Shown here: positions 18,501-39,981 of the stretch, in pieces
How the letters are laid out: the number at the start of each line of letters is the position of its first letter
Numbering within the stretch: the stretch's first letter is position 1
The notes under the pieces: model-generated
Database searches by the model: none
The model's input: the letters and a program-made list of their open reading frames with translations, nothing else
Told to the model about the DNA's origin: nothing
Source: Psammoneis japonica
Lineage: Eukaryota
DNA: 64,000 nucleotides
Assembly: GCA_008632985.1 (NCBI GenBank)
Contig: QPGO01000003.1
Span: forward strand, 248,001-312,000
Direction: 5' to 3'
Made by a program: the position numbers and the translations under genes

Positions 18501-20150
18501 TTTGCACAAACAGCATCAAAGCACAATGAGTTTCTGCAGAGGCCAAAGAAAACAAACACCCCAGCCAAGTTCATTTTTTCTTGTTGCCACACCTGCATGA
18601 CTTTGCTCTTGCAATCTGTGTGACAGCTGGTTGATTGGCGCTGGAAGAAAAAAAACAAAGAACAAAACACATGGCAGCCCAACAGTCTGGTGTCAAAAAG
18701 CAACCAAAAGTTGTTGAGGCTCATGGCGGCACAGAGTGACACTTGGGTGTGATTGTCACACTTGCCTTGTCCATGCTGGACCATCATGTTGTCATCACAC
18801 ACTGTTGTTGCACTGGTGGTGTGCAAGATTTGCAATTGTGTCTTGAGCTCAAACTTTGTCACACCTGACAATTGCCCTGTTCTAGACCCATGAGAGGATG
18901 ACACCTGATTTTGACAAAATGGTCTGAGATCATGTCAAATCTTAAACTGCCCAGTTTGAGATTTGCAAATCACGAGTGTCAAAGATTTTGTGTTTGCAGC
19001 TTCAGAGTGGTGGGGAACAAGAAAAATGTCCAAAGGACATCATTTGGACAATGTCAGTCCATTTGAAAAAAGTGTCACAAACATTGTCAGACAATGTTCA
19101 GCTCCCGGCATGCTTGTCGGATTGTTTTTCAACCAGATGCACACAGATGAAATGACCAGGTTCAGTTGTTTTTGCAGTTCTCCTCTGCACAGCTTTGATG
19201 ACCCAGTTGTCTGTGATGCTCAATTGCACCCAACAGCTCAATGGGAGACAACAAAGTCATGAAATCAGCCACTCAAGCAAGAAAGGGGGGTTGAGTCATG
19301 CACTGTTGGCTTCATGTGGAGAAGGACCACCACCTGCACCAAAGCCAGATCCTGCACCATGTGCCAGCCAGTGTGGCGGTGACATCCTTGTCTGTCATGA
19401 GAACCCTCTCAACACCAGCTTCTGTTGTGCTGGAGAAAAAACAGGGGCAGCGGTCACTGCAACAAGTCACAAAGAGAAGCACTTGTTTTCATGAAAGTTG
19501 ATCTTAAAAACACCTGTGCAGGCAATGACAACAGCGCCATCACAGTGAGTGCTTGCAGGAAATCAACATGACAAAGATGCTGGCTTTTGTGAAGAGAGCA
19601 AGTCAGAGGGTCACACTTTGTTTGTGGATCAAGGTGGAGCCACACCTGCAGCAACTTCAGGGAGAGCAACAGCAGCAGTTGTTTGGCAGCTGTTTGAAAC
19701 AACAAGTCAGGGGAGATGTGCCTCAAGGTTGGCAGGATTCTTTCTTGTCATGGCACCACTCATCCTTCAATCTGCATGTGCCCCCATGCCACTTGAAGGA
19801 AAACAGATCCCATCCTTGCCTGTCCACATGAGTTTGCACTCAAAAACAAGCTGGACAATGAACTCTTTTGCAAGTGGTGGGTGCCATCAGTCAAGTCATG
19901 CCTGGCATTTTGAAGGAGCATGGCAAAGTGGCCAATCCATGCCCCAATGCTGATTCACATTCTCTGGAATGTTGCTTTGGCATTGAGGATCATGCAGTTC
20001 CAGTGCTGTGTTGTCTTGCTTGGCATCGGTCTTGTGGTCAGTGGATTGGCTAAATGGTGTTGGGATCATGCTCTTGGATTGCCCTTGGAATGACCCAAGT
20101 CGGCCATGCCAGAGTGGTTGTGGTCTCAAGTGAGTCAACAATCAGGGACA
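15600..20150. other. TpA/CpG-depleted degenerate domain
   Basis: Very few TA or CG, TG/CA-rich, no credible ORF; ends in the decayed citrate synthase copy. Confidence 0.75.
19785..20140 (+). pseudogene. Decayed 3' fragment of citrate synthase
   Basis: Aligns to ~10437-10795 (e.g. caagtcatgcctggcattttgaaggagcatggcaaagtggccaatccatgcccc vs caagtcatgcctgacattctaaaggagcatggcaaggtggccaacccatacccc); indels, stops, TA->TG and CG->CA/TG changes. Confidence 0.9.
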
Positions 20151-20384
20151 AAATGATTTGAGTTTGTTGTAGAGATTGGATGTGAAGGAGCAGGGTTTTA
20201 AAGGATTTGGAGAAATGGGTGCGGTTGTGCTCCAAAAGAAATAGAATTTATTGTGAAGAATTAGGTTAATGAGAAAGTCGGTCTTTGTCTTAGCTAATGG
20301 CATGCCGCATAGGCAGCATTGAGGGACACGACATTCTTCCAGCATCATACGTTCTGCTTTCCCCGCTTTTTGTGCACACAACTG

Positions 20385-22182
20385 CTATGGATGATTCACT
20401 TTTGAACCACTGCCCTGCTGTCCGCCACCAAAAGCAATTGGATAATTTCCATTGACACCGACGGGAGACGTTTCCTGCAAATCGCGAGCGGTGACACTGC
20501 CGTCTACACCCTTAACTCCCCGTGTCGTTCGGTTTGCCACCTTGTCGCAAATCACCTCGGCCGCCAGTTTGCCACTCAGCACGGCTCCCTCCATGCTGCC
20601 CAAATACTTTTGCGTCGCATAGTCACCCGCAAGCACAAAGTTGGGAATGGGCGTCTCTTGACTTGGCCGATACTTGTTTCGTCCCGGTGTCGCGGCGTAG
20701 ACGCTTCGGGGAACACGCACCACGGCTGACTTTTCCACACGGGCACCTCCATTGGTGCACCGGGACCAATTTCGGTGGGAAAGAGCCGTGCCAATTCACC
20801 CATGGTTGCTTTAATAATTTCCTCATCGGAAGCGGCAATCCAATTCTTGTCGGAACCAGCCACGGGGGAACAGGGAGCGAACACCAACTCCAACATGGAA
20901 TTCGTATCCGAGGCGTATTCGTCACAACACGTTGACATGTCGGCATAGACGGAGAGCAGCGGACTCCGTGAAAAGCATAGTCCATCGACGGCTTGTTGGA
21001 GTTTGCGATCCAACCAAATGTGTACATTAATCACGGGAATACCCTCCAATTCATCCAATTGACGAAAAAACGGCATGGGTGACCATGCCTTGGGCACGAG
21101 ACGTTTAAACACATCCACGGGCATGGCCGATACATAATAGTCGGCCGTGACGGTTTTGCCATTGGCAAGCTTGAGACATTGGATGGACTTGTCCTTGTCG
21201 TTCAATTCAATACTCTTGACGGGCATACCGGCCTCGACTGCACCGCCACGAGCCATTACGTGTTCCACAATGGGTTGACATAGCCGATCGGGCTGGTTGC
21301 CATCCAAAAAGGCGTTTGCGATCCATCGGCTTCGTTAATGAATCGATTCATGGCTGTCAAAATGACAGTCATGGACAACTTGTCGGGATCAATAAAGTCG
21401 AGTGCCTTGCCCATGGCGATGAAAATTTCGTCATTGATGCGATCCGGCATGCCGTATTTTTGCATAAATTGCAGCACCGACAATTCGTCCTGTGCGTCAA
21501 TAAAGGATTGGCCCTCGACAAGCATGGGCAGCAATCCCGGAACCATTTTGATTTTTTCCTCTAGAGTCAACATTTCTGTATTGGATAAAATGGCAGCCGC
21601 CATGTTGAATGGAGCGGGGACGCCGGGAGGAAATTTGAATTTTGTAAATTGCCCGGGAAGCTCTTGCATGGCAAATGTCATGGAGTGTTCCTTCCATTGC
21701 AACCGTTCTTCAATATCGAGTTCCTCAAATAAATTCATCATATTAGGATAGGCTCCAAAGAATATATGCAAGCCGGTTTCAATCCAATCCCCGTCGGCGT
21801 CTTGCCATGCCGACACCTTGCCCCCCAGGACCTTGCGTGCTTCATACACGGTAGCTTTGTGACCTGCATCCGACAAGTACTTTGCACACGCGAGTCCAGA
21901 CAAGCCGCCGCCAATAATGGCAACAGTTTTGCTTTCAGATGTTTCTTCAGACGTGAATTTACGAGACAGTTCAGCAGCCTCTTTGTAATTTTGTGTCGCT
22001 TTTATTCTGGGTGGTGTCGGAAAGCGTTCTGTGGTGGTGCTCGACATTGAGAGTTTGTTGACGGATTTCTTTGCGCCATTTTTTGAGACTGAGTTAGGAA
22101 GATGTGGAACCAAGGCGTTTGTTGTTATTACAGAATTCAGAAAAACATAGCAAACGGCCGCTGCTGGGAACCAAGCCATCAT
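20385..22182 (-). CDS. PDS: Phytoene desaturase (15-cis-phytoene desaturase), plastid-targeted; apparent 1-nt frameshifts near 21313 and 20750
   Basis: [18 protein letters not shown] motif, [68 protein letters not shown] spread over three ORFs. Confidence 0.93.
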
Positions 22183-22291
22183 GGTGAACTCGCAGAACAC
22201 AGGTAACAGTGCTGAGAAAATGAAAAACACGAAAAACACGTCATTCAATCGATGGGGTTTAGGGCTTTGAACTTAACGTACGGTATGTAAC

Positions 22292-22325
22292 CTCGCTCGC
22301 CCGCCCGCCCGCCCGCCCGACCGCC
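22292..22325. repeat. (CCCG)n microsatellite in the divergent promoter region
   Basis: ctcgctcgcccgcccgcccgcccgcccgaccgcc between PDS (-) and the 22522 ORF (+). Confidence 0.8.
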
Positions 22326-22521
22326 TACCTCGAGATAGGTCCGTCCGTCTGTCACTCAGCAGCTGTGCAAGATCGCGATCTTGTTGCGGCAAGATGCAAG
22401 ATCGTATTTTTTTCTCGGAGGGAAGCAGAAAACAGTACTAAGGCTGAAGGATTCCAGATTGAAACCAATCATAAAATCAGCATACAGCACCAGAGTGCAT
22501 TTAAAACACAAAAAGTGACAA

Positions 22522-23157
22522 ATGTACAAGAAACTGCTTCTTACCCTCGCTGCGGCGTTTTTCACATCAGCCGCTGCCCCGCCAGGAACCAGCGCAGCAG
22601 CCACGACAGCAGGTCGACCCGTCGACGGCGAACCAACACGAGCCAGTCGAGAACTTTCAATGGGATATGATCTCCTTGGAACCATGTTTGACGGCCAGGG
22701 AAAGTTGTGGTTGCTCCCTACAATACGACTCGTAACGTTTAGCTCAACGCCCATTGACGAAGTCAAGTACGTGGCGAGGAAATTATCCGAATCGGGCAAG
22801 ACTCGAAAGAAACAGCTCAATGAGATGCGAAAATTGTCTCCCGACGCGTCTGAGAAGTATGCTACTTCCGCCGAGTCCAAGGATCCTTTCAAGGAGGCGA
22901 TTGCAGGAGTTGTTGCGTGGCGCGTCATTAAGGACATGCTCGATCGAAGCAAGGGCACATTTGACCTTAACTTTGTCTTGTTGCAGATTACTGCTTGTCG
23001 TTTGATTGCGGCAACCGCCAAGGCCTTGATTCCGTACGAGAATAATGTAGAAAGACGAGCATGGTTAAAATCTATTGATGCGGAGTATCGGGCTCTACGA
23101 GAGGAGTTGAAGGACATTATCAATACGTACGTTCGTGGCGAGGGTTCCGAGCAGTGA
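22522..23157 (+). CDS. Hypothetical protein with signal peptide
   Basis: 211-aa ORF, MYKKLLLTLAAAFFTSAAA N-terminus, normal composition, helical-looking. Confidence 0.6.
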   Translation: MYKKLLLTLAAAFFTSAAAPPGTSAAATTAGRPVDGEPTRASRELSMGYDLLGTMFDGQGKLWLLPTIRLVTFSSTPIDEVKYVARKLSESGKTRKKQLNEMRKLSPDASEKYATSAESKDPFKEAIAGVVAWRVIKDMLDRSKGTFDLNFVLLQITACRLIAATAKALIPYENNVERRAWLKSIDAEYRALREELKDIINTYVRGEGSEQ

Positions 23158-23776
23158 AGTGAAATAATAAAATGGAATTCTGTTCTAGACATAGAATGAT
23201 TTACAACATTGATATGGTTACTTTTAATATCAATAGCCGAAGCAGATTTGAAAAGCAAAGATCATTGTAGGGCCCCGCGGAACAGAAGCGGAATGGGTGG
23301 ATCGCACGAGTACGTAGCTTGTCGGACAACTATGAAACAATTGCCATGCCTACTTTGTAGAAGTCGAGGTGGTTACCGATCAGAATTGTTCAACAGAGCT
23401 TGAAGCCATGCTCGGTTGACAGTGTACGGGCATCTATTCTGGGTTACCGGTACTGCGAGAATTCCATCGCACCATCACGTTGACGAGATATCGCAAAGAT
23501 CGTCTGCAAAAGCGTTATTCGTTCATGAAGCTATTTTATTAAAAGAATCTTCTCCGGTTCACAATTGCGCTCGTCCCTGCCATCAACATCACATCCATGA
23601 GATACAAAACCCATAATGGAAGTGCAAAGTCGTATCAAGAGACAATTAATTTTCTCTAAAATCTAGAATCCGACATTGAATCAAAAACTTTGTTCTTGAC
23701 ACCGCTCTCAAGACAGTATTCACAGCAATAACGTTTCCAAAAGTCGAGTCGAGACAACAGCTAAGCGCACAGCAAC

Positions 23777-25138
23777 ATGCCATCGAAAGCCATTGGTCCG
23801 AATGATGTCATCTCGGTACAAGGTCAGTATCTCTACCAACGTGATGGGTCACGTTTCTTCATGAAAGGGATTGCCTTTCCAGTGTCAATGGATAAAACGT
23901 ACAATTCAACTGCGTGGGTGGGAATTCTGCATCAACTGAATTCTCTAGAGCTCAACTACAACACGATACGAGTGTATCGTATGGACCCCGAGATTGATTA
24001 CTCTGAATTTTTCGAGGCAGCAGCATCTCTAGGCATTTATGTAATTGTTCCTCTGACGGCACCATCTGGGGATGGAGTGCTGGAGAGAGAAACACCGGCC
24101 CCCGGTTGCTACAACAAGCGCCTTTACAATTACGGCATTGCTTGTTTGCGTAATTTTCTAAAGTACCCGAATGTTCTAGCCGGCTTGTTGGCAAATGAAG
24201 TCATGAATTCCGAATCATCTTGGACAGCCGCACCCTGCATCAAGGCCTATGGACGAGATTTGAAATTGCACATGGTCCAACAAAACAAGAGGCCGCTGCC
24301 GCTTCTTTATGCCGCACAGCACTCTGGAATTGGCCAAATTGGCGACGTGAATACCATGTGGCTCACGCTAAACTATCTCACGTGCCAGTCTTCATCGTTG
24401 TCGTCATCGTCCAATGCGCTGATGCAGCCATCTGCGATTGACATTTTTGGTGTCAACGTGGAGAGTTGGTGCAGTTCGTTAGGCTCCTTTGAATTCAACG
24501 AAGACGGCAGTGCAGGTTCTTACTATTCTCTATGGCTCGGTTTGCATCAGAGCACGATTCCATTGGTGTTTACAGAAATGGGCTGCTCCCGATTGCAGTT
24601 TGATCGAGACAATGGCCTCCACACGCCCGAGGGAACCCGAGATTGGAAACAGGTGCATGCGGTATTGCACGAAATGTCAGACACGTGGTCGGGCTTTTGT
24701 GCATACGCCTACAATGGCAATTCCATGTTTTACATGTTTCAAGGCGGACCGTGGCATTCCGAGCCTCTAGAACCAACGAAGGATTTCTACAACTTTCGCC
24801 AAGCACTCCAACAAGAGGGCGCTGTAGCTGGTGGTGGAGAAAAGCATCAAGATCCACCAACGGATTTTGAAAGGCTCTTTACGCCATCGTGTCGAGAAGT
24901 AAAAGATGATTTGCAATCCTGCTGCGGCATTGATTTGTATGGTTTTTCTCGTATTCCCTCTTTTGCTATCGAAATGGAAGGTGCATCTTTGCAACATGCC
25001 GGAGGGTTGAAGAGAAGCTTTCTGGGATCCTCTGTAGTGCTCGTGATGGTCTCTTTGGTGGTGGCTGTGGTTGGAGTGACATTGCGAAAAGTTACGAGGG
25101 ACAATTCTCAACGTTCCTCTTACCGAACTATCAATTGA
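23777..25138 (+). CDS. GH72 1,3-beta-glucanosyltransferase (Gas/Gel-like) with C-terminal transmembrane anchor
   Basis: RFFMKGIAF, NTIRVY, LGIYVIVPL, ANEV (acid/base), DIFGVNVESWC, FTEMGC (nucleophile), WSGFCAYAY; C-terminal hydrophobic helix. Confidence 0.85.
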   Translation: MPSKAIGPNDVISVQGQYLYQRDGSRFFMKGIAFPVSMDKTYNSTAWVGILHQLNSLELNYNTIRVYRMDPEIDYSEFFEAAASLGIYVIVPLTAPSGDGVLERETPAPGCYNKRLYNYGIACLRNFLKYPNVLAGLLANEVMNSESSWTAAPCIKAYGRDLKLHMVQQNKRPLPLLYAAQHSGIGQIGDVNTMWLTLNYLTCQSSSLSSSSNALMQPSAIDIFGVNVESWCSSLGSFEFNEDGSAGSYYSLWLGLHQSTIPLVFTEMGCSRLQFDRDNGLHTPEGTRDWKQVHAVLHEMSDTWSGFCAYAYNGNSMFYMFQGGPWHSEPLEPTKDFYNFRQALQQEGAVAGGGEKHQDPPTDFERLFTPSCREVKDDLQSCCGIDLYGFSRIPSFAIEMEGASLQHAGGLKRSFLGSSVVLVMVSLVVAVVGVTLRKVTRDNSQRSSYRTIN

Positions 25139-25499
25139 TGTGGCATGCTTTACTGGCCACTGCTCTCCAAGAAAGATTGATCGATTATGTCTTGTTTGAC
25201 TTTGTTGTCATTTTTTTGTGGTTAGGTATCTTTCAGAACTTAGAAGTCGCCCACTTGTTACAAATCGCGCAAGATGTCTAGCACAGTGTGCCATCGCATG
25301 GGAGAGTCTCGTTGTCACTGTTCCTTTTGATGTGTCAGGCTAGGAACATCGCCACATTCACTCGAGTTACATCACGACCGACCTCCCAAGCTACATGCCG
25401 GCGAGTTGAGGGTGATTCGGTTCGGTTGTTTCAAAAAACAAAAAACCAATGAGAAAAAATCCAGACCAAAGTAAACCAGAGTCGCCCACGTCTACAACC

Positions 25500-26848
25500 C
25501 CTCGTGCTCACAAATCATTGGCTTCTGAAATCCTTTCTGGGAAGCAGGCCAAACCTTTCATCGAGGGTTGATGTTTTCAAACACACCACTCCCACCCCCC
25601 TTGCCCATTGGTTGCTGGCACATTGTTGCCACACTCGACTTCCGCATCCCTTGAAGTGAAAGGATGCAAAACACACAACCTCCATGTCACAGCACCCTGC
25701 TGTTGTCATTGACAAATGGTGACACAAAGGAAAAGAGAGTGCACTGCCACAACCTGGCACTGGGCAAGCAACAGCACAAACACATCAAGGCAAGCTGCAA
25801 GAGAGTGGGGCATCACTAAGACTCAAGACAGCTGAGCATCAAAGAGGACACCACAAGGCACCACAGGATTGGCAGCACAAGAGAGTGCATCACATTGAAC
25901 AGCTTGATGATGCCGGCACCCCAAGAGTCGTGCAGGAGAGGGTGAATTGACTTGCACAAACAATCAGACAGGGGTGCAGAAAACTCAAAAAGCACAAGCA
26001 ATTAAGTGCAAACTTGTTCCCACAGCTTTTCAGACAGACTGCAAAATTCTATGTTGGCAGGAAAGAAGTTTGAAAGTTTGGGTTTGAGAATCTGACATTT
26101 TGACATGAAAGAGAGAGAGAGAGAGACAGAGAGAGCAAAAATCATCAATGCCATGTCACCATTGCCACATGACCCACATGCCCACAAGAGCAACAGCGAC
26201 AATGCCCCATCAGATGCCATGGGACAAAGTCAAACTCAAACCAGCCAGATGCTCCACAAAAACATCTTAAGCCCATGATGTTTGCTGTGCATGAGCTTGA
26301 AAAAATTGGCTGTGTTCATGACATGTCATCAGAAAATTTTCAACAGGGGCATGTCTCTTGTCAAGGCACATTTTCCCATGAGGTTCTTGGCTCCAATTTG
26401 TCAAGATTGCTGGTCTGGTGCAAGTCAAAATGGATCCAAGAACAAGAGCTGCAGCTTCCACTTTTCTCATGAAGGAGACAAAGCAGAGGAAAGCACCAGC
26501 AGCGCTTCTCTCCATTTTTCCAGCTGGGTGAAAAAACTGCTGGAGAGGCTTGTGATTTCACAAACAAGTTGGTGGTGTTGGAATTCCTTTTGCCAACATT
26601 TGCAAATGACAGCAGGTGAAAATTTTGTCTCCTCCAGCAGGACAATGCGCTGGTCTCTCAGGCATTCATGTGGGGGGCACTGCTTGTCTTTGCTGACAGC
26701 CAAGCACGTGGTGGTGCTTGGTGGTTTTGTCTTGATGTTGTGTGTAAAAAACAGCAGAAACAAGAGAAAGCAGCTGCTGACAAGTCAAAGACAGGGGCAA
26801 AACATGACACTTCACTGAGAAAACAAAGATGAAGACAGCAGAGCATGA
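25500..26848. other. TpA/CpG-depleted degenerate domain into which the copia element inserted
   Basis: Near absence of TA and CG; TA-poor sequence continues after the right TSD (33960 onward). Confidence 0.7.
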
Positions 26849-27124
26849 TGACAGGATTTGAACAGGATTTGGATGCGCGCGAAGTGTCGCGCGCTGTTTA
26901 GTTTACCGCGCACAGTTTTGTGTGCTTTAGTTCCGCGCGTTCACGCGCGATGTAGTTTGCTTTCGAGCCACAAGGCTCACAAGAATAATAACAGTAGCCC
27001 GATTATACCGACTTACCCGTCTTTCGGCTCCTGTAACGGTCTCTGAGCGGAGACTCATCTGCTATTTAGACAGCAGTAAGGAGTTATTGTTTGAATTCTT
27101 GCCATTTGCCTTCAATTTCTGTCA
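26849..27124 (+). repeat. 5' LTR
   Basis: tgacaggatttg...caatttctgtca; direct repeat of 33679-33954. Confidence 0.95.
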
Positions 27125-28063
27125 GATTAACAGTCTTGCTCATTGTCAACCCATTGAGCAACCGCCATCGTCGTCGTTGATTTACCAACGACGCTATTTC
27201 AATTCTACGTGGACCTCCGTATATATTCTACATACATCGGCAAGTCTACGCGCATTCAATACCAGGGCATCGGCAGGAAGTTAACGTCACCGTCAAGTCT
27301 CCTTACCGCTGGATATCTGGATTGATTATACTACCTTTGATCGCTGAAGACATACATTCAACGGTCATATCCAAGTCTATCCTTGATCCTCATCCCTTGA
27401 TATACCTATTCATCGGTTAACGGTCAAGAACCCTACATATTCAAGGATCTTCGTCGCTGAAGACATGTGTGTGTGTGCACATCTTCACGGCCAAGAACCT
27501 GTACCCACTCTTCGGACTGCGGTTTTGCCACCACTCTACAAGCACACCGAGTCCATTGCACCTGATCTACCCCGGACTGCTGGTGCTCTACAGTTCTGCT
27601 AGGTCCACGAGGACGACTGTGAGAGCAAGCAGCCGTGATTGCAACCCACATTGGGGCGAGGGTGCTTTCCCGCGTTTGTTCGTTCGTCCACAGCGCCTGA
27701 CGCCTGCGTCAACTGGCCAGCCTGATCGGGAAATCCAACCGACATAAAATAAGAACGGTTCGGGGGTCTTGTCCACCTCTAGTCAGCTCACCTGCAGGGG
27801 TTTGCAACCCGCTGCTCCGCTCGCAAGCAACCCAAAGCGCCACCAGCTGCGGGTTTGGACGTGCCGGCACAACTCTACGGACCGGACAGGAAGTTTAGCA
27901 CTCAACAACGAACGGGACAACAAAGCCCGGCGACTTCTGATTTTAAGACAGCTCAAGATTTCAAGTCAAGTCTGTTTCAAGTCAAGCCTGTTCTCACCCA
28001 AGTTTCGAGTCTGCCTTCGCTTCCCAACCCGAATTGATTGTCCTGACACCACTTTCATCTACC

Positions 28064-31000
28064 ATGGTTCTCACTCGTCAGCAACAAACCGATGGTTTCG
28101 AGCACGTTGTTGGAACCGTGCTTGCCCAAGGTGCTGGGAGTCCTCTTCGTTCAGCTTTGGCCCAAGACGGCATGGACTCGCATCAGGAACCATTCACGTT
28201 CATGCCGTCCCAAATCGACTCGCTTGAGTGTGACAACGGCACTGATGCAATCCCTTTGCCCCGTGGTTATGAGAACATGTTAGCAGCACTGGTCAGCCTG
28301 TGCATTGTCAAAGCACACAAGGGTCTTGACGTTGCCAACGACTCCTCTTTGTTCGCGCATGACGAGTTCCTTGCCTGCCGCCTCAGCCCGGACTGCATGT
28401 CCTCTGTGTCCATCGGCAGCTCACCCCTTGCACCTCCACATGTCACCAACCCGACCAAGGCACGCGACCCGGTGCGAGACTTCAAGCGAGGCATCAAGCG
28501 TGATCCCACCGCTTTCACGGCTCTCAAATCCGACAAGCAGTGGCACACTTGGCACACCTCACTTGTGGCACAAGCCCGTGCCCAAGACGTCGAGTGCATT
28601 CTAGACTCGTCGTACAAACCGACCAGCCCCGAAGACAAACTGCTCTTCACTGAACAGCAAAAGCACATGTTCGCCGTCTTCGAACGCATCCTTCTCACCG
28701 ACAAGGGCAAGGCTCTCATTCACGAAAATGTGGGGTCTTCTGACGCACAGACCGTCTGCCGCTCCTTGTCTGAGTGCGCGCTTGCCTCCACCCGTGCATC
28801 CATCGAGTCCTCCACCCTGCTCATGCACCTCACCACCGCACGTCTTGGTGATGGCACTTGGAAAGGCCCGACCCACGGGTTCATCCTTCATTGGCAAGAT
28901 CAGTTGCGCAAGTGCGAGGCGCTCGTCCCTGCCAGTGACCACTTCTCTGAAGGACAGAAGCGCGTCATGCTCGAGAATGCCGTGCACCCTGTCGAGGAAC
29001 TCCGTGCTGTCAAGAACCAAGCTGATCAGCGCCGCACGCAGAGTGGCAAGAGCCTCACATACGATCAACACTGTGGCTTGCTCCTCTCCGCGGCAGCTCA
29101 GTGCGACAGCACGTTTCAACCCAAGACGACACCCAGAGCTCCCCGACGCGCCATGTGCGCACACGACGTCTGCTCCGAGGAACCGTCCGACGATGTGTTC
29201 TACGACATTGACAGCGATGTTGACGTCCTTCAAGCCAATGCTGCCTGCACCCGCGGTCCCAGCCTCACCGGTGTCCAATGGAGACGTCTCCCTCCCGACC
29301 ACCAACGGCTCTGGGATTCGTTGCCCGATTCCTCCAAGGCGATCATCCTTGAGCATTCTCGTCCGCCTCCCCGCAACCCGCGAGCCAGCAACTGCCATGA
29401 GTCTGTTACGGCCAACCTTCACGACCAACACCTTGGGAGTGACGGTGATGTCAACTTGTCCAACACGACTCCTGCTGACTGTGGTGACCCCGCTGCACAT
29501 GTGGACGCCACTTCGGACAATCCCATCCTGGCGCACCTCACCAAGCGCAAGCCACTGCCACCCGGTGATCTGCAACGTCTGTTGTCTCCTAACCAAGCCC
29601 CCAATGCCAGTCGACCGGGGCCATCCGCCGCTTCCTCTACCCCGCCAGCTTCTGCAGATAACACAGAACTTAACGGCCGCACTCACCGCCGCGTTGACAA
29701 CCACAATGTCATTTGCTCTGCCTCTGCTCATCGCTCCACACGCACTGGCGCTCTAGTCGATCGTGGGGCCAACGGCGGCATTGCTGGCGACGACGTTCGC
29801 GTCATCGCACGCACCTCTCGCCAAGTCGACGTTCAGGGCATTGACGATCATCAATTGGTGGACACCCCCATTGTCACCGCTGGTGCTGTCATTGAGACCC
29901 AGCGTGGTCCCGTCATCGCCATCCTCCATCAGTGCGCATGCACGGGAAAGGGCAAGACCATCCATTCCTGCGGCCAGCTCGAATGGTGCAAACAGGATGT
30001 CAACGATCGCTCTGTCAAGGTGCCCAACGGCTTGCAACGTATTGCCACTCCTGATGGCTGTGTCATCCCCATTGACATCAAGGCTGGCCTGCCTTGTGTT
30101 GCCATGCGACCTTACACTGACGCCGAATGGGACACCCTGCCCCATGTCATCCTCACCGGTGATGACACATGGACCCTTCCGTCCTCGATCACTCTGTCAC
30201 TGACGACGACCAGTGGTGCGACGCGATCTCTGACCTGCAGGACGATCCCACTGCCAACCTGTTTGACGAATGCGGCAACTGCCGTCACCGTGTCGTTGTC
30301 AACGAGACCATCTTGTCCGCTTCCTTGTCTGCCGATCACGCATCCGCCCTCGATGATCACCTCATTCCGAACGACGACGTGTTCTGCGAGTGTCATCTGC
30401 ATGCGATTGACCCCCAGGGCGATGACGTTCCACCTCCGGAGCGCACTGTACAGCCCAAGGACCCCCCCTTCGAGTCTCTTCGGCCTTGCTTTGGCTTCCT
30501 ACCTGCCGATGCGGTCCGTCGTACTTTTGACTGCACCACGCAGCACGCCCGCATGCCCGCCGGTACACACCTTCGCAAGGCCTGCAAATCACCCAACCCC
30601 GCCCTCAATGTGCACCGCCGCAACGAGCCTGTCGCCACTGACACCGTTCATGCCGACACCCCGGCCGTCGACTCTGGTTGCACCAGCGCCCAACTGTTTG
30701 TTGGCACCGCGTCTGCCGTCACTGACGTCTGCGGCACTAAGACGGACAAAGAGTTTGTCAACACACTCGAGGATCAGATCCGTGAACGTGGTGCCCCATC
30801 CAAACTCATCAGCGACCGTGCTCAAGTTGAGATCAGCAACAAAGTGCTCGGGATCCTGCGCACCCTCTTCATCTCCAGCTGGCAAAGTGAGCCTCACCAG
30901 CAACACCAAAACTTTGCCGAGCGTCGATGCCAGACCGTGAAGCGCGTGGCGAACACTGTCATGGACCGTTTTGGTTCGCCCGCCCACACATGGCTGCTGG

Positions 31001-33731
31001 CGCTCATGTGCGTGTGCTTCATGCTCAACCACACAGCGTCCCCACGTCTCCACTGGCGCACGCCCCTCGAGACTCTCACTGGATCCACCCCGGACATCAG
31101 CCCATTGCTTCGCTTTCACTGGTGGGAACCAGTGCACTTCCACCTCGATGATTCCGATTGGCCGTCCGAATCCCGTGAGTTGCGTGGACGCTTCGTTGGC
31201 ATTGCTGAGCACGTCGGCCACCAGATGACCTTCAAGATCCTATCTGACGAGACTCAGAAGATCCTCTGCCGGTCCAACGTTCGCTCCGCTGCCCCCGATC
31301 CTGCCGTTCGAAACCTGCGTCTTGATCCTCCTGATGGGAGCCACCTGAACCCATCATCAAATCTCGCCATGACGACAACCCCGTCGATTCTCCTGATGGG
31401 GAGATCAGGACACCCAAGATGCCAGTTTTCGATCCGCAAGACATCATTGGACGTACCTTCCTCATGCAGCCACAAGAGGACGGACAACGCCACAGAGCTC
31501 GCATCGTCAAGGCCGTCGAAGACCACGAATGGAAAGTGAACGGCAATCCCGAGCTCACCAAGTTCGTCTGCTCTGTCAACAATGACGAATACGAGGAAGT
31601 CCTTGCCTGCAATGACATCATGAATCACATTGAGCAAGAAGACGAAGACACCACCATTTGGAAATTTCGACGCATCGCATCACACGAAGGACCTCTGAAG
31701 CCTCACGACCCAACCTGGAAAGGCTCAAGCTACAACATCATGCTTGAATGGGAAAGTGGGGAGATCACGTCCGAGCCTCTTGCCATCATCGCCAAGGACG
31801 ACCCCGTCACCTGTGCCATCCATGCACGAGAGAACGGACTCCTAGACACGGATGGCTGGAAGCGGTTCCGCACTATCGCGAGGCGCCAAAAGAAGCTATT
31901 TCGCATGGCCAACCAAGCCAAGCTTCGCTCCTTCCGCACTGCACCTCGCTACAAGTGCGGATACAAAGTTCCCCGGAACTACAAACACGCCATGTCACTG
32001 GACGAACGCAACGGCAACCGCAAGTGGGGAGACGCAACTAATCTCGAGATGGACCAACTCGATGAATACGAAGTCTTCCATGACTGCGGGCCCTTCAAGT
32101 CTTCCACTCCTCCTGCGGGACACAAGAAGATCCGAGTGCACCTGGTGTTCGACGTGAAACACGACGGTCGCCACAAGGCACGACTCGTAGCCGACGGGCA
32201 CCTCACGGACGTACCTGTCGACAGTGTCTGCTCGGGAGTAGTCTCCCTCCGTGGCCTTCGGCTGATGATTTTCCTGGCCGAACTCAACGAGCTGGAGACA
32301 TGGGCCACCGACATTGGCAATGCCTGCCTTGAAGCCACCACCAAGGAGAAGCTTTACATTGTAGCTGGACCCGAATTTGGCAAACTCGAAGGACACATCC
32401 TTGTCATCCACAAGGCACTGTATGGACTGCGCAGCTCCGGTCTCCGCTGGCACGAGCGCTTCGCCGACTGCCTGCGAGCTGAAGGCTTCTTCCCCTGCCG
32501 CGCCGAACCCGACATTTGGATGCGCAGGAACGGCAACCACTGTGAACACATTGGCGTTTATGTGGATGACCTCGCCATTGCCATGAAAGACCCTCAATCT
32601 TTCATCGACACTCTCACGGAAAAGCACAAGTTCAAGCTCAAGGGTGCAGGACCCATTGAGTTCCATCTGGGTTGCGACTTTTCCCGGGACCCCGACGGAA
32701 CCTTGTGCCTGTCTCCGCGCAAGTACATCGAGCGCATGGTCGACAGCTGCACCCGATTGTTTGGGGAGAAACCTGCCACCAACGCCCTGTCACCTCTAGA
32801 GAAGGGTGACCACCCCGAACTGGACACTTCCGAACCACTGGGACCCGATGGCATTCACAAGTTCCAGTCTCTTGTTGGTTCACTCCAATGGGCAGTGTCC
32901 CTTGGTCGAATTGACATTGCCACGGCTGTCATGTCACTCTCTAGCTTCCGAGCTGCACCCCGTCAAGGCCACTTGGATCGTGCCAAACGCGTCTGTGGGT
33001 GCCTCTCCAAGATGCGACACGGTGCTCTCCGCGTTCGTACGGAAGAGCCCGACTGTTCGGATCTCCCTGCTCCGGCCTGTGAATGGATGCATTCCGTGCA
33101 TGGTGAAGCAGAAGAGATGGTCCCGAAGGACGCTCCACCGCCCCTTGGCAAGTTCGTCACTGCCACCCACTACGTCGATGCAAACTTGTGCCATTGCATG
33201 CTCACCGGACGCTCTGTCATGGGAATGCTCCACTTCCTCAACAAATTCCCGGCTGATTGGTTCTCCAAGAAACAAGCCACCGTGGAGACTGCAACCTGCG
33301 GATCTGAATTTGTTGCCGCAAGGAATTGTGTTGAGCAGATTGTCGACCTGCGCATCACCCTGCGCTGCCTTGGCGTCCCGATCCGTAATGTCAGTTACAT
33401 GTTCGGTGACAACAAGTCGGTTGTAGACAGTGCCACCATCCCGCACTCCAAGTTACACAAGCGACACACCGCACTGTCGTTCCACCGTGTGCGTGAGGCA
33501 ATTGCCTCTGGTTACCTTGAGTTCCACTTCATCGAAGGCTCCCGCAACCCTGCTGACATTCTCAGCAAGCATTGGGGTTGCTCCCAAATCTGGGACCTTC
33601 TCCGCCCCCTCATGTTCTGGAACTTCATCCCATCCGAAGTCGAATCTGTTTCTGTAGCTCCTCAAGCAAACTGGGGAGTGACAGGATTTGAACAGGATTT
33701 GGATGCGCGCGAAGTGTCGCGCGCTGTTTAG
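28064..33731 (+). pseudogene. Copia gag-pol polyprotein, Tyr-depleted, with frameshifts near 30175 and 31350
   Basis: Protease LVDRGANGG; integrase DTVHAD/SDRAQVE/HQNFAER; RT VFDVKHDGRHKARLVA and YVDD; RNase H DNKS and NPADILSKH. Confidence 0.9.
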
Positions 33732-33954
33732 TTTGCCGCGCACAGTTTTGTGTGCTTTGGTTCCGCGCGTTCACGCGCGATGCAGTTTGCTTTCGAGCCA
33801 CAAGGCTCACAAGAACAATGACAGTAGCCCGATTATACCGACTTGCCCGTCTTTCGGCTCCTGTGATGGTCTCTGAGCGGAGACTCATCTGCCATTTAGA
33901 CAGCAGCAAGGAGTTGTTGTTTGAATTCTTGCCATTTGCCTTCAATTTCTGTTG
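33679..33954 (+). repeat. 3' LTR (hypermutated at TpA)
   Basis: Direct repeat of the 5' LTR with 11 internal substitutions plus the terminal dinucleotide. Confidence 0.95.
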
Positions 33955-34381
33955 CATGATGAAAAGAGGACGGGCAATTTGCGGGGACTCACACAGAGGA
34001 GTCGAGGAACTGGTGGCAAACGTCCACCACGCAAACGTCTCTATTCTCTGTTCGTAAAATGGCTTCACTGCATGGAATCAACGAGGAAAAATTCAAAATG
34101 ACCCCATCCATCCTGGTCCGCGGTCACGCAAAATGTTTTTGGTTGACTGACTCGCACAGACCATTTTGGAAATTTGTGCAAACAGGGGAATGTGGGTTTC
34201 ACTGCACGACTCACTCACCAACCCCTGTAGGATTGTACGCAATTCCGTATGTGAAGTGTGATCGCGGTTATGGTGTCGAGTGAGTCTTGCACGTACCTCT
34301 TGCCTAACGTTTCGTCCATTTCAACTCTTTCCTACTTCTACTTGTCTGACGATGCTCGAATACGTCTAAAAAACAAACGTG

Positions 34382-36951
34382 ATGAACAGTGATAATCAGA
34401 AAGACCATCGTGAAGAATGCGGCAGGACTGAACAAGGTGTAAACGAGCCAACGAATGCCCACGCCAACAACAGGACGGCGAAGAAAAAGAAAAGTCATAC
34501 ACGACGAGGCGAGCAAAATCATGAGGAAAAAGAAGAAACAAATGAAGAGCACGCATCGACCAAACGCTCTTTTACGAGCAACGAGAAGAAAGGCCGACCA
34601 GGAAAAGATCGAAAAGGAGAGGAGATTATCGAAGAACAGCGCGTCGACCCGGGTGTTGCGGTCACGGAGGAACCACTCGTACCACCCGAAAAGCTTTCTG
34701 CAGTCGGCCAACGCCAAGCAGTTCGGCGTGAGGCTCTTTACGAATACACCGAGACACAAAGCTCACATTTGAAAATCAATCCATTATCGACGCCTTCTTC
34801 TTCGAGCAGTGATAACGACAAGCCCGTGTTTCTGGAAAAACGCCAAGTGTTTCGCAGCGGGAATGAGCATTTTTTGGATGAACAATATGAAAAATTAGAC
34901 TATACTGCTGACGAGAAGAAATCAAAATATCGCACTCACCGAGATGAGTTGTTGATACAAGATACAGCGGAGTCAAAAAAGAAGAAAAGAAAAATTCGTC
35001 GTGCTACCAGACAGAAGCAAGTAAGAGAAGAAGAAGAAAACATGGAAGTGCAATCTCGTGTAGATCCAATTCTTGCTCTCTGGTTGGTGACTCAAACATT
35101 GTATCAGAAACGGAGGAACGGCTAGTATCACCCGTCGGGGCTTTTGCAGTCAGCCAACGCCAAACAACTCGACGTTCTGTTCGTCATCAAGATTCCGAGA
35201 CGCAATGGTCAGATTTGGAATCCGTTCATTCTAACCTGTCTTTATTGTCGTCTGTGGCTCCTTTTCAAGATGGCGGGATACCCGTTGGGGCTTTTGCGGT
35301 CAGCCGTGGCCAAGCAACTCGACGTTATGTTAGTCGTCAGGATTCCGACACGCAATGGTCAGATTTGGAATCCGTTCATTCTAACCTGTCTTTATTATCG
35401 TCTGTGGCTCCGCTTCAAGATGGCGGAACTCCAATGCTTTTGGAGGCACAGCTGGCACGGCCGGTTGAAGATCTCGAAGCTGAATTGTCTCGTCGACAAG
35501 CCGAAGAAATGCAGGGTCTGCAGACAGAGATTGAGGATCTTCGTCAGTCACAGCTATCGAATCTCCCGCTCGCACATGCAGAAGTGACAAAAGGGATCCA
35601 GAAAAGGAAGCGACTGCTGATGTTTTGTATAATGTCATTGGTTGTAGCTGTCATGGTTTTCGTTGCAGTAATCGTTTCAACCCAGCAACGGACAGAATCA
35701 CCAACCAACGCTCCAACGACGGGTACTCAAGTCGTATTGAATAGAACGTGGAGTCAGGTTGGACAGGATCTTGCCGGAGAAGCGCCCGAAGACCAATTTG
35801 GCATTTCTCTCTCTTTATCGCGTGACGCAAGAGTCATGGTCGTAGGAGCAACTCAAAAAAAGTTAAAAGGCAACACTCATGGTTATGCGTCGGTCTTTCA
35901 ACTAGAAAAGGCAACCAATTCTTGGACACGCAAGGGCCAAGTTCTGATTGGAGATGAACGCCAAGACCTTTTCGGCATGTCGGTGTCGCTGAATAGTGAT
36001 GGAACGATTCTTGCTGTTGGGGCACTACAGAAGAGAGATAGAGATGGTATATCAGATGCGGGCTATGTTCGAGTGTACGAGTACAATGTGGTCACCGAAA
36101 AATGGGACCAACTTGGAAAGACGATGAGAGGAGACGCAGTTGGCGATGAATTTGGTACTTCTGTTTCATTGTCCAGTGCGGGAGACACTCTAGTGGTTGG
36201 AGCAAGGAGGGCCGACACCAGTAATGGGATCAGTTCTGGAATAGTTCGAGCATTTCGCTACAACCGTGGGACCTTGTCGTGGGTACAACTTGGCCAGACA
36301 CTTGCTGGTCAAACAGAATATGATCTTTTTGGTGAATCCGTGTCCTTAAGCAGTTCCGGCTCAATTTTTGCTGCCGGTGCACGTTCAAGTGATATAGGAG
36401 GAAGAAATGCTGGTCTGATAGCCATGTACAGATACAATTCGACATCGGCAATGTGGCTGCTGATGGGTGAAACCATCAGTGGGGAACCTGGAGGCTTGCT
36501 TGGAAGTTCAGTTTCTCTTAGTAGTAACGGGATGATTGTTGCCGCGGGTGCGCCAGGATCAAGTGATGGGAGGGTTTTGAGTTATGAATATGACGTTGAA
36601 ACGTCAACATGGACACAACGGGGCCAAACCCTAGAGACCCAACAACAAGGCGATGACTTTGGTGGTTCTGTATCGTTGAACGGAGAAGGAAATATGCTGG
36701 CAGTAGGAAGTCGTTTTCACAATGCCGGTGGGTTAACGAATTCCGGCCAAGTTGTCATCCTAATATATGACATTGACGCTGAGGAATGGCATCAGTTGGG
36801 TGAAGGTTTGTATGGTGAAGCTTCAGAAGATCGGTTCGGACATTCAGTGTCGCTCTCTGGCAATGGAACCATTGTAGGAATTGGTTCAAGTGGGAGCTAT
36901 CCCAACAGTAATAGCTCGGGATCAGCGTACACATTCAAAATGATTGAATAG
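34382..36951 (+). CDS. Type II membrane protein with extracellular FG-GAP beta-propeller (apparent frameshift near 35080)
   Basis: Charged low-complexity N-terminus, TM (LLMFCIMSLVVAVMVFVAVIVS), about 7 repeats of DxFGxSVSLS...LAVGA; the frameshift is inferred from the paralogue (GDSNIV...SPVGAFAV). Confidence 0.8.
35131..35430 (+). repeat. Tandem 150-bp intragenic duplication
   Basis: cccgtcggggcttttgcagtcagcc at 35131 and cccgttggggcttttgcggtcagcc at 35281. Confidence 0.9.
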
Positions 36952-37221: not shown

Positions 37222-39981
37222 ATGAGGCGCAGTGACATGGATAAGCAGAAAAACCGCAATGAAAGAAGTGGAAGGGCTGATCAAGTTTTTAATGGAGAAA
37301 ACGTAGACTCAAATGAAGAACAAGCCTCGAACGAATCGGAATGCGTTTCCCAGAACAAAAGGAGGAAGAAGAAAAGCCACTCTGGAAAAGGCAAAACAGG
37401 CCAAGGCAAAATCACGAAGCACGACGATCAGGTTGCTTCTCTTGGTCCTAGACATGTGCCACATGCGGATCTGAAGGACTATAATACAAAGAACAAAACG
37501 AAGAAGAAAGAGAAGAGGTGTCTCCCTGGAGGAGGTCAAAAGGACGAAGCCATCATCGAAGTGCATGTCGATAATGGGACTGCTTTCAACCCAGATCATA
37601 TCAGACACTCAACTGCGGTTGAACGTACTTCGAACAAAAAGAAGAAACGGAAGAAGAAACGCAAAACAGGAGAAGAGAACGAGAACGAAGACAACTTCGA
37701 TCCGCTTCTTGGAATGAATTCCAGCCATGTGATAAACACAGGTGAAACGAAGGACAAGAAGAAGCGCAACCCCGGAGAAGAATCGAAACGCGAAAGTAAC
37801 GTCGAAGAACAGTTCGACACGGCTGCTCTGATCCATCTAAACAACGCGCCAAACGAGGAGGAGTCCCTAGCATCATCACTTGTTGGAGCTCTCCCAGTGC
37901 GCCGACGCCAAGCAATCCGACGAGATGTTCTTTATGAAGATAACAAGAGACGAAGCACATACTTGAAAGTCAATACATCATCGGCGCCTGCTCTGCCTCG
38001 TGATGACGACACACCGGTATTTTTGAAAGCGAAACTCTCACCGCCAGAAGACATGTCATGGAGCAAGAATGAGCCTTTTTTGGATGAACCAAATGGCGAA
38101 GACTGCACCACTAAGGAGAACAACACGAAACGCCGTTCTCGCCGAGAGCAGCTACTAAGGCAAGAAGGCATGCTGGAATTGAAAATACAAAAGGCTTCGA
38201 AAAAAAACATTTCTATGAAGACGAAGACAAGAAACAGTCGTCGCACTACAAGTGAAAAAGAAGACGAATCTGGCAAAGATCTGCTTGATACAGTTGTTGT
38301 GGTAGACAACTCCAACATTGTACCAAACACAGAACCACCGGCATCACCCGTTGAAGCTTTTTCAGTTCGCCGAACCCACGGGTCAGATTGGGGAACAGCC
38401 CACTCCGATCTATCATTGATGCTCTCTGTGGCTCCTCATGAAGTCGGGACACCAATGATTTTGGAGGCGCAACTCGCGAGACCAATTGATGACATCGAAG
38501 CTGGCATGTCTCGTCGAAAACAGGAGCACGGAGAAGAAATGCATCGTCTACAGACAAAGGTACAGGAACTTCGCAGATCACAGCTGACGAATCTACCGCT
38601 CGTTCATGCAGAAGTGGCAAAAGGTATACAACACAGGAAGCGTGTGATGGTTATCTGCGTTGCGTTGGTATTTCTTGCTATTCTTGGGGCTGCTGTTGGT
38701 GCAATCGTTTCAACACAAAAACGGACAGAATCGCCTTCCAACTCGCCAACAGTCCGTACTGATGTCGTATTGAATGGAACTTGGAGTCAGGTCGGAAATG
38801 TTCAAACTGGCAAGAATGCTGAGGACTATTTTGGTACTTCTGTCTCGTTGTCGCGTGATGCAAGAGTCATGGCCGTGGGAGCCACTCAATACTGTTCCAA
38901 AGGCGACAGTCGTGGATATGCTTCTGTGTATCAATTAGACGAATCAACGCAATCTTGGATAAGCATGGGCCAAGTTTTGTCGGGGAACGCGAACCAAGAT
39001 GTTTTCGGTAGATCTGTGTCGCTAAATCGTGATGGCACAATTCTCGCGGTTGGGGCACCACAGAAGGGAGAATGCAATGGTAAATCTGGTGCCGGCTATG
39101 TCCGAGTGTACGAGTACAATGTCGTCACAGAAATGTGGGGGCAACTTGGCAGTGACATAAGCGGAGAAACAGGAGGTGATGAACTTGGTTTTTATGTGTC
39201 ATTGTCCGACACGGGAGATACTCTAGTGGTAGGGGCACGGAGGGCCGACACTAGCAATGGGATCAATTCTGGATTGGTTCGTGCCTTTCGGTACAACCGT
39301 GGCACCTCGTCATGGGAACAACTGGGGCAGACAATTTCTGGGCAAGCTGCATTTGATATGTTTGGCGTTGACGTGGCCTTAGATAGTTCTGGCTCCATTC
39401 TTGCGGTTGGGGCGCGCTCCAATGATTTGGGCGGGAAAAATGCTGGCCAGGTCTCCATATACAAATACAATGCGACCTCGGCGATGTGGCTGCCAATGGG
39501 TGAACCCATCATTGGAAAAACTGGTGACTTGTTTGGCTATTCTGTTTCTCTTAGCCAAAGTGGCTTGATCGTTGCCGCGAGTGGGACGAAGGTGAACGAA
39601 GAGAGAGTTGTCGTTTACGCGTATAACAATGAGACCTCAGAATGGATGCAACGGGGTCAAACCCTAGAGACTCAACAGCCAGGTGATCGCTTCGGGCATT
39701 ACGTTTCCTTGAACGGAGAAGGAAACGTGTTGGCTGTAGGAAGTCGCTTCCACAATGCCAGTGGAGTAACAGAGTCCGGTCAAGTTGTCATGCTAAAGTA
39801 TGACGTTGACACGGATGCATGGAAGTATCTGGGCGAAGGCCTAAATGGTGATACCGAAGAAGAGCGGTTCGGAAATTCAGTGTCGCTATCTGGAAATGGC
39901 ACCTTAGCGATTGGTTCGAGTTTGAGTGATCCCAACGGGGCCAGTTCAGGGTCCGTGTACGTATTCCAAATGATTCACTAG
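37222..39981 (+). CDS. Tandem paralogue: type II membrane FG-GAP beta-propeller protein
   Basis: Same architecture; strong protein and DNA similarity to 35215-36951 (e.g. GYVRVYEYNVVTE, DTLVVGARRADTSNG). Confidence 0.85.
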   Translation: MRRSDMDKQKNRNERSGRADQVFNGENVDSNEEQASNESECVSQNKRRKKKSHSGKGKTGQGKITKHDDQVASLGPRHVPHADLKDYNTKNKTKKKEKRCLPGGGQKDEAIIEVHVDNGTAFNPDHIRHSTAVERTSNKKKKRKKKRKTGEENENEDNFDPLLGMNSSHVINTGETKDKKKRNPGEESKRESNVEEQFDTAALIHLNNAPNEEESLASSLVGALPVRRRQAIRRDVLYEDNKRRSTYLKVNTSSAPALPRDDDTPVFLKAKLSPPEDMSWSKNEPFLDEPNGEDCTTKENNTKRRSRREQLLRQEGMLELKIQKASKKNISMKTKTRNSRRTTSEKEDESGKDLLDTVVVVDNSNIVPNTEPPASPVEAFSVRRTHGSDWGTAHSDLSLMLSVAPHEVGTPMILEAQLARPIDDIEAGMSRRKQEHGEEMHRLQTKVQELRRSQLTNLPLVHAEVAKGIQHRKRVMVICVALVFLAILGAAVGAIVSTQKRTESPSNSPTVRTDVVLNGTWSQVGNVQTGKNAEDYFGTSVSLSRDARVMAVGATQYCSKGDSRGYASVYQLDESTQSWISMGQVLSGNANQDVFGRSVSLNRDGTILAVGAPQKGECNGKSGAGYVRVYEYNVVTEMWGQLGSDISGETGGDELGFYVSLSDTGDTLVVGARRADTSNGINSGLVRAFRYNRGTSSWEQLGQTISGQAAFDMFGVDVALDSSGSILAVGARSNDLGGKNAGQVSIYKYNATSAMWLPMGEPIIGKTGDLFGYSVSLSQSGLIVAASGTKVNEERVVVYAYNNETSEWMQRGQTLETQQPGDRFGHYVSLNGEGNVLAVGSRFHNASGVTESGQVVMLKYDVDTDAWKYLGEGLNGDTEEERFGNSVSLSGNGTLAIGSSLSDPNGASSGSVYVFQMIH

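Follow-up and report, generated by a model that had tools for sequence, protein, structure and literature searches.

A copia element with altered TpA content

The DNA analysed here, called the window, is a 64,000-nucleotide stretch of the genome of the diatom Psammoneis japonica (assembly GCA_008632985.1, contig QPGO01000003.1, positions 248,001–312,000); all coordinates refer to it. Direct-repeat search and alignment delimit a single, complete copia element bounded by long terminal repeats (LTRs) at 26849–33954, the only copy of this element in the window. Over most of its length the dinucleotide TpA (TA) has given way to TpG or CpA while CpG has been kept, and we argue below that this probably reflects TA-directed hypermutation of chromosomal DNA after the element had integrated. 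A first-pass annotation had drawn attention to 28064–33731, from the first methionine of the first long frame to the stop of the third, where tyrosines of the polyprotein appeared as cysteine or histidine.

The LTRs are 276 bp each, lie in direct orientation and are 96% identical, the 3′ copy ending in TG where the 5′ copy ends in CA (Table 1). A 6-bp target-site duplication, GCATGA, with an LTR one base shorter is another possible reading. Three long frames lie between the LTRs (27947–30940, 30166–31539 and 31335–33731), and long relatives are colinear across all three, with junctions at ~30172 and 31335. The RVT_2 match scores 99 bits against a cut-off of 31.6 (PF07727), and a short purine run, GGGGAG, sits just before the 3′ LTR. 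Pfam recognizes no family in the first two frames, even at E ≤ 1. Its integrase models match neither the 387-residue second frame nor the relatives P0031 and P0120, and a PDB sequence search with P0031 returned chance matches only and no solved integrase. Because these two intact relatives also go unrecognized by the integrase models, the missing match appears to be a property of the clade.

Word depth summed over the element reaches 48,000–119,000 in the contigs of the sequencing runs, compared with ~56 in the unique flanks, indicating a very abundant family. Judged by sequence, we take the element to be a structurally complete Ty1/copia-type LTR retrotransposon of a very abundant family in the diatom. 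It resembles the CoDi elements (PMC2806351) in its RVT_2 reverse transcriptase (RT), its diatom host and the plentiful relatives in aquatic metagenomes.

Table 1. Features of the copia element and its target site, in window coordinates.
Feature	Coordinates	Strand	Basis and remarks
Target-site duplication CATGA, left copy	26844–26848		Same 5 bases directly after 3′ LTR
5′ LTR, 276 bp, TGACAG...CTGTCA, not hypermutated	26849–27124	+	Direct repeat with 33679–33954; 15 TA, observed/expected 0.82
5′ leader, spared from TA loss	27125–27600	+	26 TA in 27128–27438; TA sparse past ~27600
Hypermutated domain, ~70% of TpA to TpG/CpA, CpG kept	27600–33954		TA observed/expected mostly 0.0–0.3 per 250 bp, CG ~0.9
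Gag and protease-region frame, first Met to first frame break	28064–30169	+	Open frame; 29477–30172 colinear with N-termini of long relatives
Frame break 1, one G of a short G run absent	30170	+	Context cat/gga (break at the slash); run contigs insert G
Integrase-position frame	30172–31334	+	Colinear with residues ~190–580 of long relatives, 49–56% identity
Frame break 2, one G of a G run absent	31335	+	Context gat/ggga (break at the slash); run contigs insert G
RT/RNase H frame with the listed Tyr>Cys/His changes	31338–33731	+	Open reading frame; alignments with relatives
RVT_2 domain (Ty1/copia-type RT)	32109–32747	+	Pfam PF07727, E = 4.1e-28, residues 258–470 of 31338–33728
3′ LTR, hypermutated	33679–33954	+	10 of 15 ancestral TA now TG (6) or CA (4)
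Target-site duplication CATGA, right copy	33955–33959		Alignment

Selective replacement of conserved tyrosines

We aligned the third frame with the best 120 of 2,638 database matches (63–70% identical) and called a column conserved at a consensus of at least 90% with at least 60 relatives present. The window agrees with 281 of the 299 conserved columns. Its 18 differences include nine Tyr>Cys, three Tyr>His and one Tyr>Phe, leaving conserved Tyr in place at 4 of 17 columns; the other residue classes are each kept at 97% or more, save Thr (10/13). The integrase-position and RT frames were compared together with 33 long relatives (36 with at least 1,000 residues, minus the much more distant P0001, P0115 and P0119), giving 401 columns conserved at 90% or more, 377 of them unchanged. 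Here Tyr survives at 4 of 18 columns (nine now Cys, three His, two Phe), whereas 373 of the 383 other conserved residues are kept; the contrast between 12/18 changed to Cys or His and 10/383 altered is highly significant (Fisher's test, p = 3.4e-13).

A variant using pairwise high-scoring segments, with a consensus of at least 80% and the protein P0074 excluded, yields 26 Tyr columns (Cys 12, His 4, Tyr 8, Phe 2 in the window) and leaves 466 of 493 non-Tyr columns unchanged. Lowering the Tyr threshold to 50% gives 32 columns, at which the window has Cys 13, His 5, Tyr 10, Phe 3 and Trp 1. All four Tyr-consensus columns of the integrase-position frame have changed (two to Cys, one each to His and Phe), and the tyrosines replaced include those in core RT motifs. 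The gag/protease third (28064–30169) lies outside the Tyr comparison: an add-fragments alignment left 0 usable columns, pairwise alignment none with at least 15 relatives, and a MAFFT alignment of the protease piece with the long relatives was discarded because it was plainly out of register, with differences at 47 of its 82 'conserved' columns.

The nine motifs on which the first-pass annotation had based its claim are all present, every one in frame 31335–33731. Ten of their 11 Cys/His residues do stand in Tyr-majority columns (118–120 relatives), for example residue 299 (Tyr in 119/120), residue 331 (120/120) and residue 678 (119/120); the eleventh, residue 619, is of ambiguous origin (Met in 53, Tyr in 44 of 120). 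Relatives do not carry Cys or His at these sites, in keeping with the claim that Tyr is the normal residue. Of 80 metagenomic loci, 77 have retained 14 or more of the 17 conserved Tyr, with 13/14 or better in those with fewer covered columns, and all 77 lose only 0–3. Among the database proteins, 119 of 120 retain the conserved Tyr, scattered single changes aside.

Direction and dinucleotide specificity

Every Cys or His replacement codon is TGY or CAY, which polarizes the change at TAY codons as TA loss, as had been proposed. Private missense changes, for which we required a column of at least 60% consensus and a window residue found in fewer than 10% of relatives, number 56, and 40 of these are single-step. 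The 40 divide into TA>TG (15.3), TA>CA (7.0), CpG transitions (3), other transitions (2) and transversions (12.7), the two TA classes together contributing 22.3. Both other transitions are A>G, and outside TA and CpG there is no G>A or C>T class.

The same direction is seen in codon-aligned DNA. Opposite 98 TA sites of the closest metagenomic relative (L001), the window reads TA 16, TG 20 and CA 21 times, and in the reverse case a window TA faces TG 0 times and CA twice. Pooling 22 relatives (the most similar 25 loci after removal of L080, L079 and L044, which are described below) gives 2,079 TA sites, at which the window has CA in 26%, TG in 23% and TA in 11%. Forty sites have TA in at least 40% of the 77 unmutated relatives; the window reads TG at 17, CA at 9, TA at 11 and TT at 3, so that 11/40 are kept as against 35/39 of the CG sites selected at the same threshold. 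Over the interior (27947–33678) there remain 50 TA, an observed/expected ratio (obs/exp) of 0.19, and CG stands at 0.91.

Three independent estimates place the fraction of TA changed at ~70% (10/15 in the LTR, 29/40 at conserved TA sites, 14/18 at Tyr). Change outside TA is limited to 3/246 LTR bases and 10/383 other conserved residues, a contrast in rate of well over tenfold. It is this disparity, most TA changed and few other sites, that justifies the term hypermutation.

LTR differences and the timing of TA loss

Compared position by position, the two LTRs show 13 differences, all transitions. At ten of them the 5′ LTR has TA and the 3′ LTR has TG or CA; none run in the opposite direction, and the remainder comprise one CpG transition and the terminal CA versus TG; CpG is kept at 20/21. 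At integration a single template gives rise to both LTRs, so the TA differences argue for mutation in the chromosome.

The 5′ LTR (15 TA) and leader (37 TA) hold 52 TA together at obs/exp ~0.8 and are untouched up to ~27450–27600, where TA loss begins as a step with no gradient. The spared stretch, not noted in the first-pass annotation, takes in the 5′ LTR together with the ~500 bp of leader next to it and measures ~750 bp. It could reflect an abrupt boundary between chromatin domains, subsequent gene conversion of this patch by an unmutated copy, or chimeric assembly of the very abundant repeat. A contig of sequencing run X1 joins 27144 directly to 27843, omitting 698 leader bases, a leader-less variant of the family.

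Recurrence in other elements and in non-transposon DNA

Across the RT region of the 80 metagenomic loci, TA obs/exp ranges from 0.43 to 1.13 in 77 and falls to 0.01, 0.31 and 0.36 in L080, L079 and L044, respectively; the window stands at 0.27. These three loci, from unrelated metagenome assemblies, have also lost Tyr: L080 keeps 1/17 (Cys 4, His 8, Phe 4), L044 keeps 8/15 (Cys 5, His 2) and L079 keeps 9/16 (Cys 1, His 5, Phe 1). A fourth case is the database protein P0074, which retains 9/17 (Cys 5, His 3) and is distinct from these loci (at most 65% identical to any of them). The L080 contig has 3 TA in all of its 2,766 bp, with CG also reduced (0.26–0.56). TA erosion thus recurs independently in other copia relatives. 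The TG:CA ratio differs among elements (16:7, 4:8, 1:5 and 5:2; chi-square p = 0.036), which is suggestive only. The TA that survive in the window copy are flanked on each side by G/C more often than those of relatives (27/55, compared with 28%), a weak flanking-base preference not seen in L079 or L044.

Paralogous DNA in the window that is not part of a transposable element (TE) shares this fate. In 48614–49409, compared with the gene at 1224–2013, TG/CA has replaced 26 of 38 TA and 19 of 34 CG; between 10437–11096 and 19784–20417, the counts are 15 of 30 TA and 16 of 29 CG. Since non-TE paralogues behave in the same way, the process is not tied to reverse transcription.

Stop codons and reading frames

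The element had been described as disabled by missense rather than nonsense mutations, with open reading frames (ORFs) that stay long and look intact. The first part fits well, as TA loss cannot create stops: each frame of the interior contains 3–12 TAA and TAG codons, compared with 13–39 in a control stretch of equal length. The second part needs qualifying, for the frame is broken twice by single-G deficits, each of which shifts the downstream frame by one and either of which may be an assembly error. Three long ORFs run off-frame or antisense to the polyprotein, at 28601–29752 (− strand, 383 residues), 28605–29756 (+ strand, 383 residues) and 31995–32789 (− strand, 264 residues); we regard them as by-products of stop-codon loss, not genes.

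Read evidence

Contigs from four sequencing runs, all of one sample and one study, were aligned to 15001–35000 at 85% likeness or more. Those of run X1 reach 315 kb, and most of 15001–26339 lies at single-copy depth. One of them reproduces a stretch free of TA and CG, 17112–20408, with 13 mismatches and 8 gaps in 3,297 bp; because contigs at depth ~56 reproduce it, TA-free DNA is not an assembler artefact. At 15886 and 17507, inside a TA-free patch, the window has TA where a run contig has CA, for which reason TA loss may be polymorphic or ongoing.

Within the element, differences among family copies in X1 are mainly transitions and run both ways (A>G 106, T>C 108, G>A 82, C>T 77; transversions 79). 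At 28152–28153 and 32836–32837 the window has CA and the run contigs TG, the outcome expected if a single ancestral TA had been hit independently, on one strand or the other; the second site makes a Pro codon, CCA, of what is CTG in the contigs and Leu in relatives. Among the differences listed, at least nine element rows depart from the window in essentially all aligned contigs.

The extra G accounts for 44,817 of 67,617 summed depth in X1 behind 30170 and for 42,765 of 86,171 behind 31335. Against the same contigs the window is short of a single base at eight unique places (16229, 17188, 18261, 18647, 19505, 19616, 21312 and 26050), several of them homopolymers and all likely to be small assembly deletion errors or allelic indels. 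Given these deficits in unique DNA, frame breaks 30170 and 31335 may likewise be assembly errors rather than real lesions.

Probable hypermutation after integration and its alternatives

The observations above describe a TA-specific A:T>G:C process with both strand outcomes, far above background, independent of CpG decay in this element, and recurrent. We interpret them as a domain-limited, DNA-level hypermutation of TpA to TpG or CpA that followed integration of the copia element, a reading to which, from the sequences compared, we assign a probability of roughly 0.6. The element would first have integrated; a process acting on chromosomal DNA would then have converted ~70% of its TA, as A:T-to-G:C transitions on either strand of the self-complementary step, in a domain extending from ~27600 through the whole 3′ LTR, with almost nothing else altered. 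In coding terms Tyr (TAY) would become Cys (TGY) or His (CAY), Ile (ATA) Met and Leu (CTA) Pro. The removal of TAA and TAG stops would leave a polyprotein crippled by missense and all six frames unusually open.

Several points weigh against this interpretation. Its support comes from the sequence of one window and its relatives, and the four runs, with no platform on record, derive from one sample and one study, possibly the same that yielded the window assembly. Compared with its relatives, the family favours C/G as the third codon base (AT>AC 48/136, TG>CG 39/133), a shift that inflates and partly confounds the CA class at codon boundaries, though not the Tyr codons. In X1, sites with A/T in the window and G/C in the reads (214) are no fewer than the reverse (159), a balance that fits many independently mutated copies without proving them. 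The 5′ LTR and leader are pristine though as repeated as the 3′ LTR, where a simple homology-triggered model of the kind known from fungi predicts otherwise. Finally, the LTR contrast could stem from gene conversion of a patch, or from chimeric assembly, in what is a ~1,000-fold repeat; either would weaken the LTR argument for timing after integration, not the Tyr or the paralogue argument.

Editing before integration is the alternative that survives best, and we still consider it unlikely. Genomic RNA would have been deaminated by an ADAR- or ADAT-like enzyme (adenosine to inosine), or single-stranded complementary DNA (cDNA) deaminated during retrotransposition, and the product integrated. 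The overall profile fits, in that mutations are absent from the region beside the primer-binding site and from the 5′ LTR but present in the remainder, the 3′ LTR among it. Nor is there a clear effect on the flanks (TA obs/exp 0.29 at 34001–34250, then 0.42–0.56). Under the standard scheme of reverse transcription, moreover, the second strand transfer returns the minus-strand U3-R-U5 to a single-stranded state, so the 3′ LTR could gather edits absent from the 5′ LTR. Editing of one strand should nevertheless yield one type of change, and TA>TG and TA>CA are interleaved, without the strand-coherent tracts of processive single-strand deamination (13 runs, 12.7 expected). Both types occur within the 3′ LTR (six TG, four CA), the onset near 27450–27600 is stepwise rather than graded, and non-TE duplicated DNA in the window has met the same TA fate.

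The state of the window could also have been inherited, the whole family carrying Cys/His and TA-poor coding through functional substitution or through a mutated master amplified in trans. We judge this improbable, more so than editing before integration. The family is enormous and has a GC-rich codon usage of its own; among the differences listed, no more than nine element rows set the window apart from essentially all contigs, so that many window states may be common to part of the family. Yet the ten TA-site differences between the LTRs cannot arise by inheritance, family-copy differences are mostly transitions in both directions, and replacement of 14 of 18 invariant Tyr with 373 of 383 other residues kept is no pattern of functional change.

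Poorer still are the prospects of a sequencing or assembly artefact, in which the true DNA has TA and either a modified TpA base in silenced DNA is misread or long-read assembly errs systematically. The eight single-base deficits in unique DNA (16229–26050) and the unrecorded run platform speak for it. The X1 contigs match TA-free DNA almost exactly, though, each site reads cleanly as TG or CA with no mixture, and the Tyr>Cys/His erosion also occurs in sequences from other projects, namely a database protein and three unrelated contigs from metagenomes.

Least credible is ordinary slow decay with no dedicated mechanism, possibly with GC-biased gene conversion among copies, which is in line with the interior GC content (0.57, window ~0.48) and with the TA-poor surrounding genes (obs/exp 0.5–0.7) but is at odds with the ~70% change at TA beside 3/246 non-TA LTR bases, 10/383 conserved residues and one of 21 LTR CpG, and we know of no TA specificity in GC-biased gene conversion.

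Comparison with known mutational systems

To our knowledge, the hypermutation systems described as inactivating mobile DNA all use cytosine deamination, as in repeat-induced point mutation (RIP) and APOBEC editing, or RNA editing, as with ADAR. Full-text searches of the literature (supplements excluded) found no TpA>TpG/CpA hypermutation, only these C>T systems or RNA editing. A term search of the CoDi paper (Maumus et al. 2009, PMC2806351) returned no hypermutation, RIP or dinucleotide bias. In the literature searched, including term searches of PMC2806351, 10.1101/2025.10.24.684338 and PMC9258296, no link of N6-methyladenine or 5-hydroxymethyluracil to diatom repeats was found.

Of these systems, fungal RIP offers a close parallel in effect: dense transitions at one dinucleotide permanently inactivate repeats, on both strands of chromosomal DNA, and leave a skew usable as an index. 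Passages of two sources describe it as C:G to T:A change, mostly at CpA, which creates TpA (PMC2621366, PMC6963459). Here the change is A:T to G:C, TpA is destroyed, GC rises instead of falling and stops are removed, not created; the host is a diatom, and the 5′ LTR is spared. RIP itself was rejected as the cause on two counts, there being 0 sites with TA in the 3′ LTR opposite TG/CA in the 5′ LTR, and Tyr being lost, not gained. Although the mutated domain stops close to where the 3′ LTR does, the 5′ LTR, which is no less repeated, and a portion of the leader are untouched.

APOBEC editing likewise leaves integrated copies of LTR elements hypermutated, with clustered changes at a preferred dinucleotide. 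According to part of one source (PMC4866542), they deaminate C on minus-strand cDNA and so produce G>A on the plus strand only. The element differs in that A:T pairs change, both strand outcomes are mixed, the LTRs differ and non-retroelement DNA bears the same signature. Editing of cDNA of this type was discarded because, TA and CpG aside, the 40 private single-step changes contain neither a G>A nor a C>T class. ADAR, ADAT and TadA enzymes share the A-to-G outcome, but their substrates are RNA (double-stranded or transfer RNA), and ADARs are metazoan; the changes here are heritable, in DNA and on both strands. Hyperediting of transcripts by an ADAR-type enzyme was set aside on the interleaving of TG (17) with CA (9) and on the ten TA sites at which the LTRs differ.

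The decay of methylated CpG (5-methylcytosine) resembles the present process in turning a self-complementary pyrimidine–purine step into TG/CA in silenced DNA, and older TA-free patches in the window lose CpG too. It was rejected for the element, where CpG is intact (obs/exp 0.91, 35/39 conserved CG sites and 20/21 LTR CpG kept) while 70% of TA is gone; CpG depletion is seen in the older patches elsewhere. The TA process is, by this difference, separate from CpG decay and much faster.

Possible mechanism and significance

We suggest that chromosomal DNA is mutated in place, within delimited domains, and that, by analogy with fungal RIP, the process may target silenced or repeated DNA as a genome defence. 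Enzymatic deamination of adenine at 5′-TA-3′, giving inosine that is read as G, is our conjecture for the chemistry; mispairing of a modified thymine and deamination of methylated adenine are alternatives. ADAR and ADAT/TadA enzymes prefer a 5′ U/T neighbour.

Tentatively, and extrapolating well beyond one element, a diatom lineage may possess a heritable RIP-like defence of opposite chemistry. An enzyme would recognize silenced or repeated chromatin and convert A:T to G:C at the symmetric TpA of double-stranded DNA, the simplest candidate being a DNA adenine deaminase of natural origin, in effect a cellular 'adenine base editor'. Acting alongside CpG decay, it would drive both self-complementary pyrimidine–purine steps to CA/TG, disabling transposon proteins by Tyr>Cys/His while erasing stops. 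If true, TpA-specific heritable A:T-to-G:C conversion of repeats would be a new mutational chemistry of genome defence in a major algal lineage, would predict a DNA-acting enzyme of possible use in base editing, and would account for the odd islands of composition and the long but spurious ORFs of diatom assemblies. Annotation is affected as well: DNA without TA stays open in every frame and invites false gene calls, and hypermutated transposons look intact. TA obs/exp combined with Tyr>Cys/His counts would provide a simple index for dating or classifying diatom transposon copies.

TA-poor patches and neighbouring genes

Patches poor in both TA and CG occur elsewhere in the window, at 7001–9000, ~15640–20400, 25501–26848, ~42300–44000, 48001–52000 and ~59000–64000. 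At the kilobase scale they have 1–8 TA and 5–17 CG per kb, with CA+TG at ~1.8–1.95 times expectation; their edges are sharp and they sit between ordinary genes. The patch at 25501–26848 abuts the 5′ end of the element exactly and has no continuation past the 3′ end (CG obs/exp 0.9–1.4 from 34001 onwards). The idea that the patches are old, recognizable TEs found no support, as Pfam searches of 86 ORFs of at least 90 residues gave only a Peptidase_M64 relic and no transposon domains. A degraded paralogue of the Peptidase_M64-domain genes at 2–2221 and 2746–5967, located at 48267–49409 and aligning with 913–2013 and 4637–5513, lies inside a TA/CG-free patch.

Tandem FG-GAP-repeat paralogues at 35350–36951 and 38374–39981 share 72.6% identity across 1.6 kb, and in both of them TA and CG content is ordinary; duplication alone therefore does not trigger the process. 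Near the element, a GH72 gene (23765–25138) finds its best matches in the centric diatoms Thalassiosira profunda (63%) and Skeletonema menzelii (58%).

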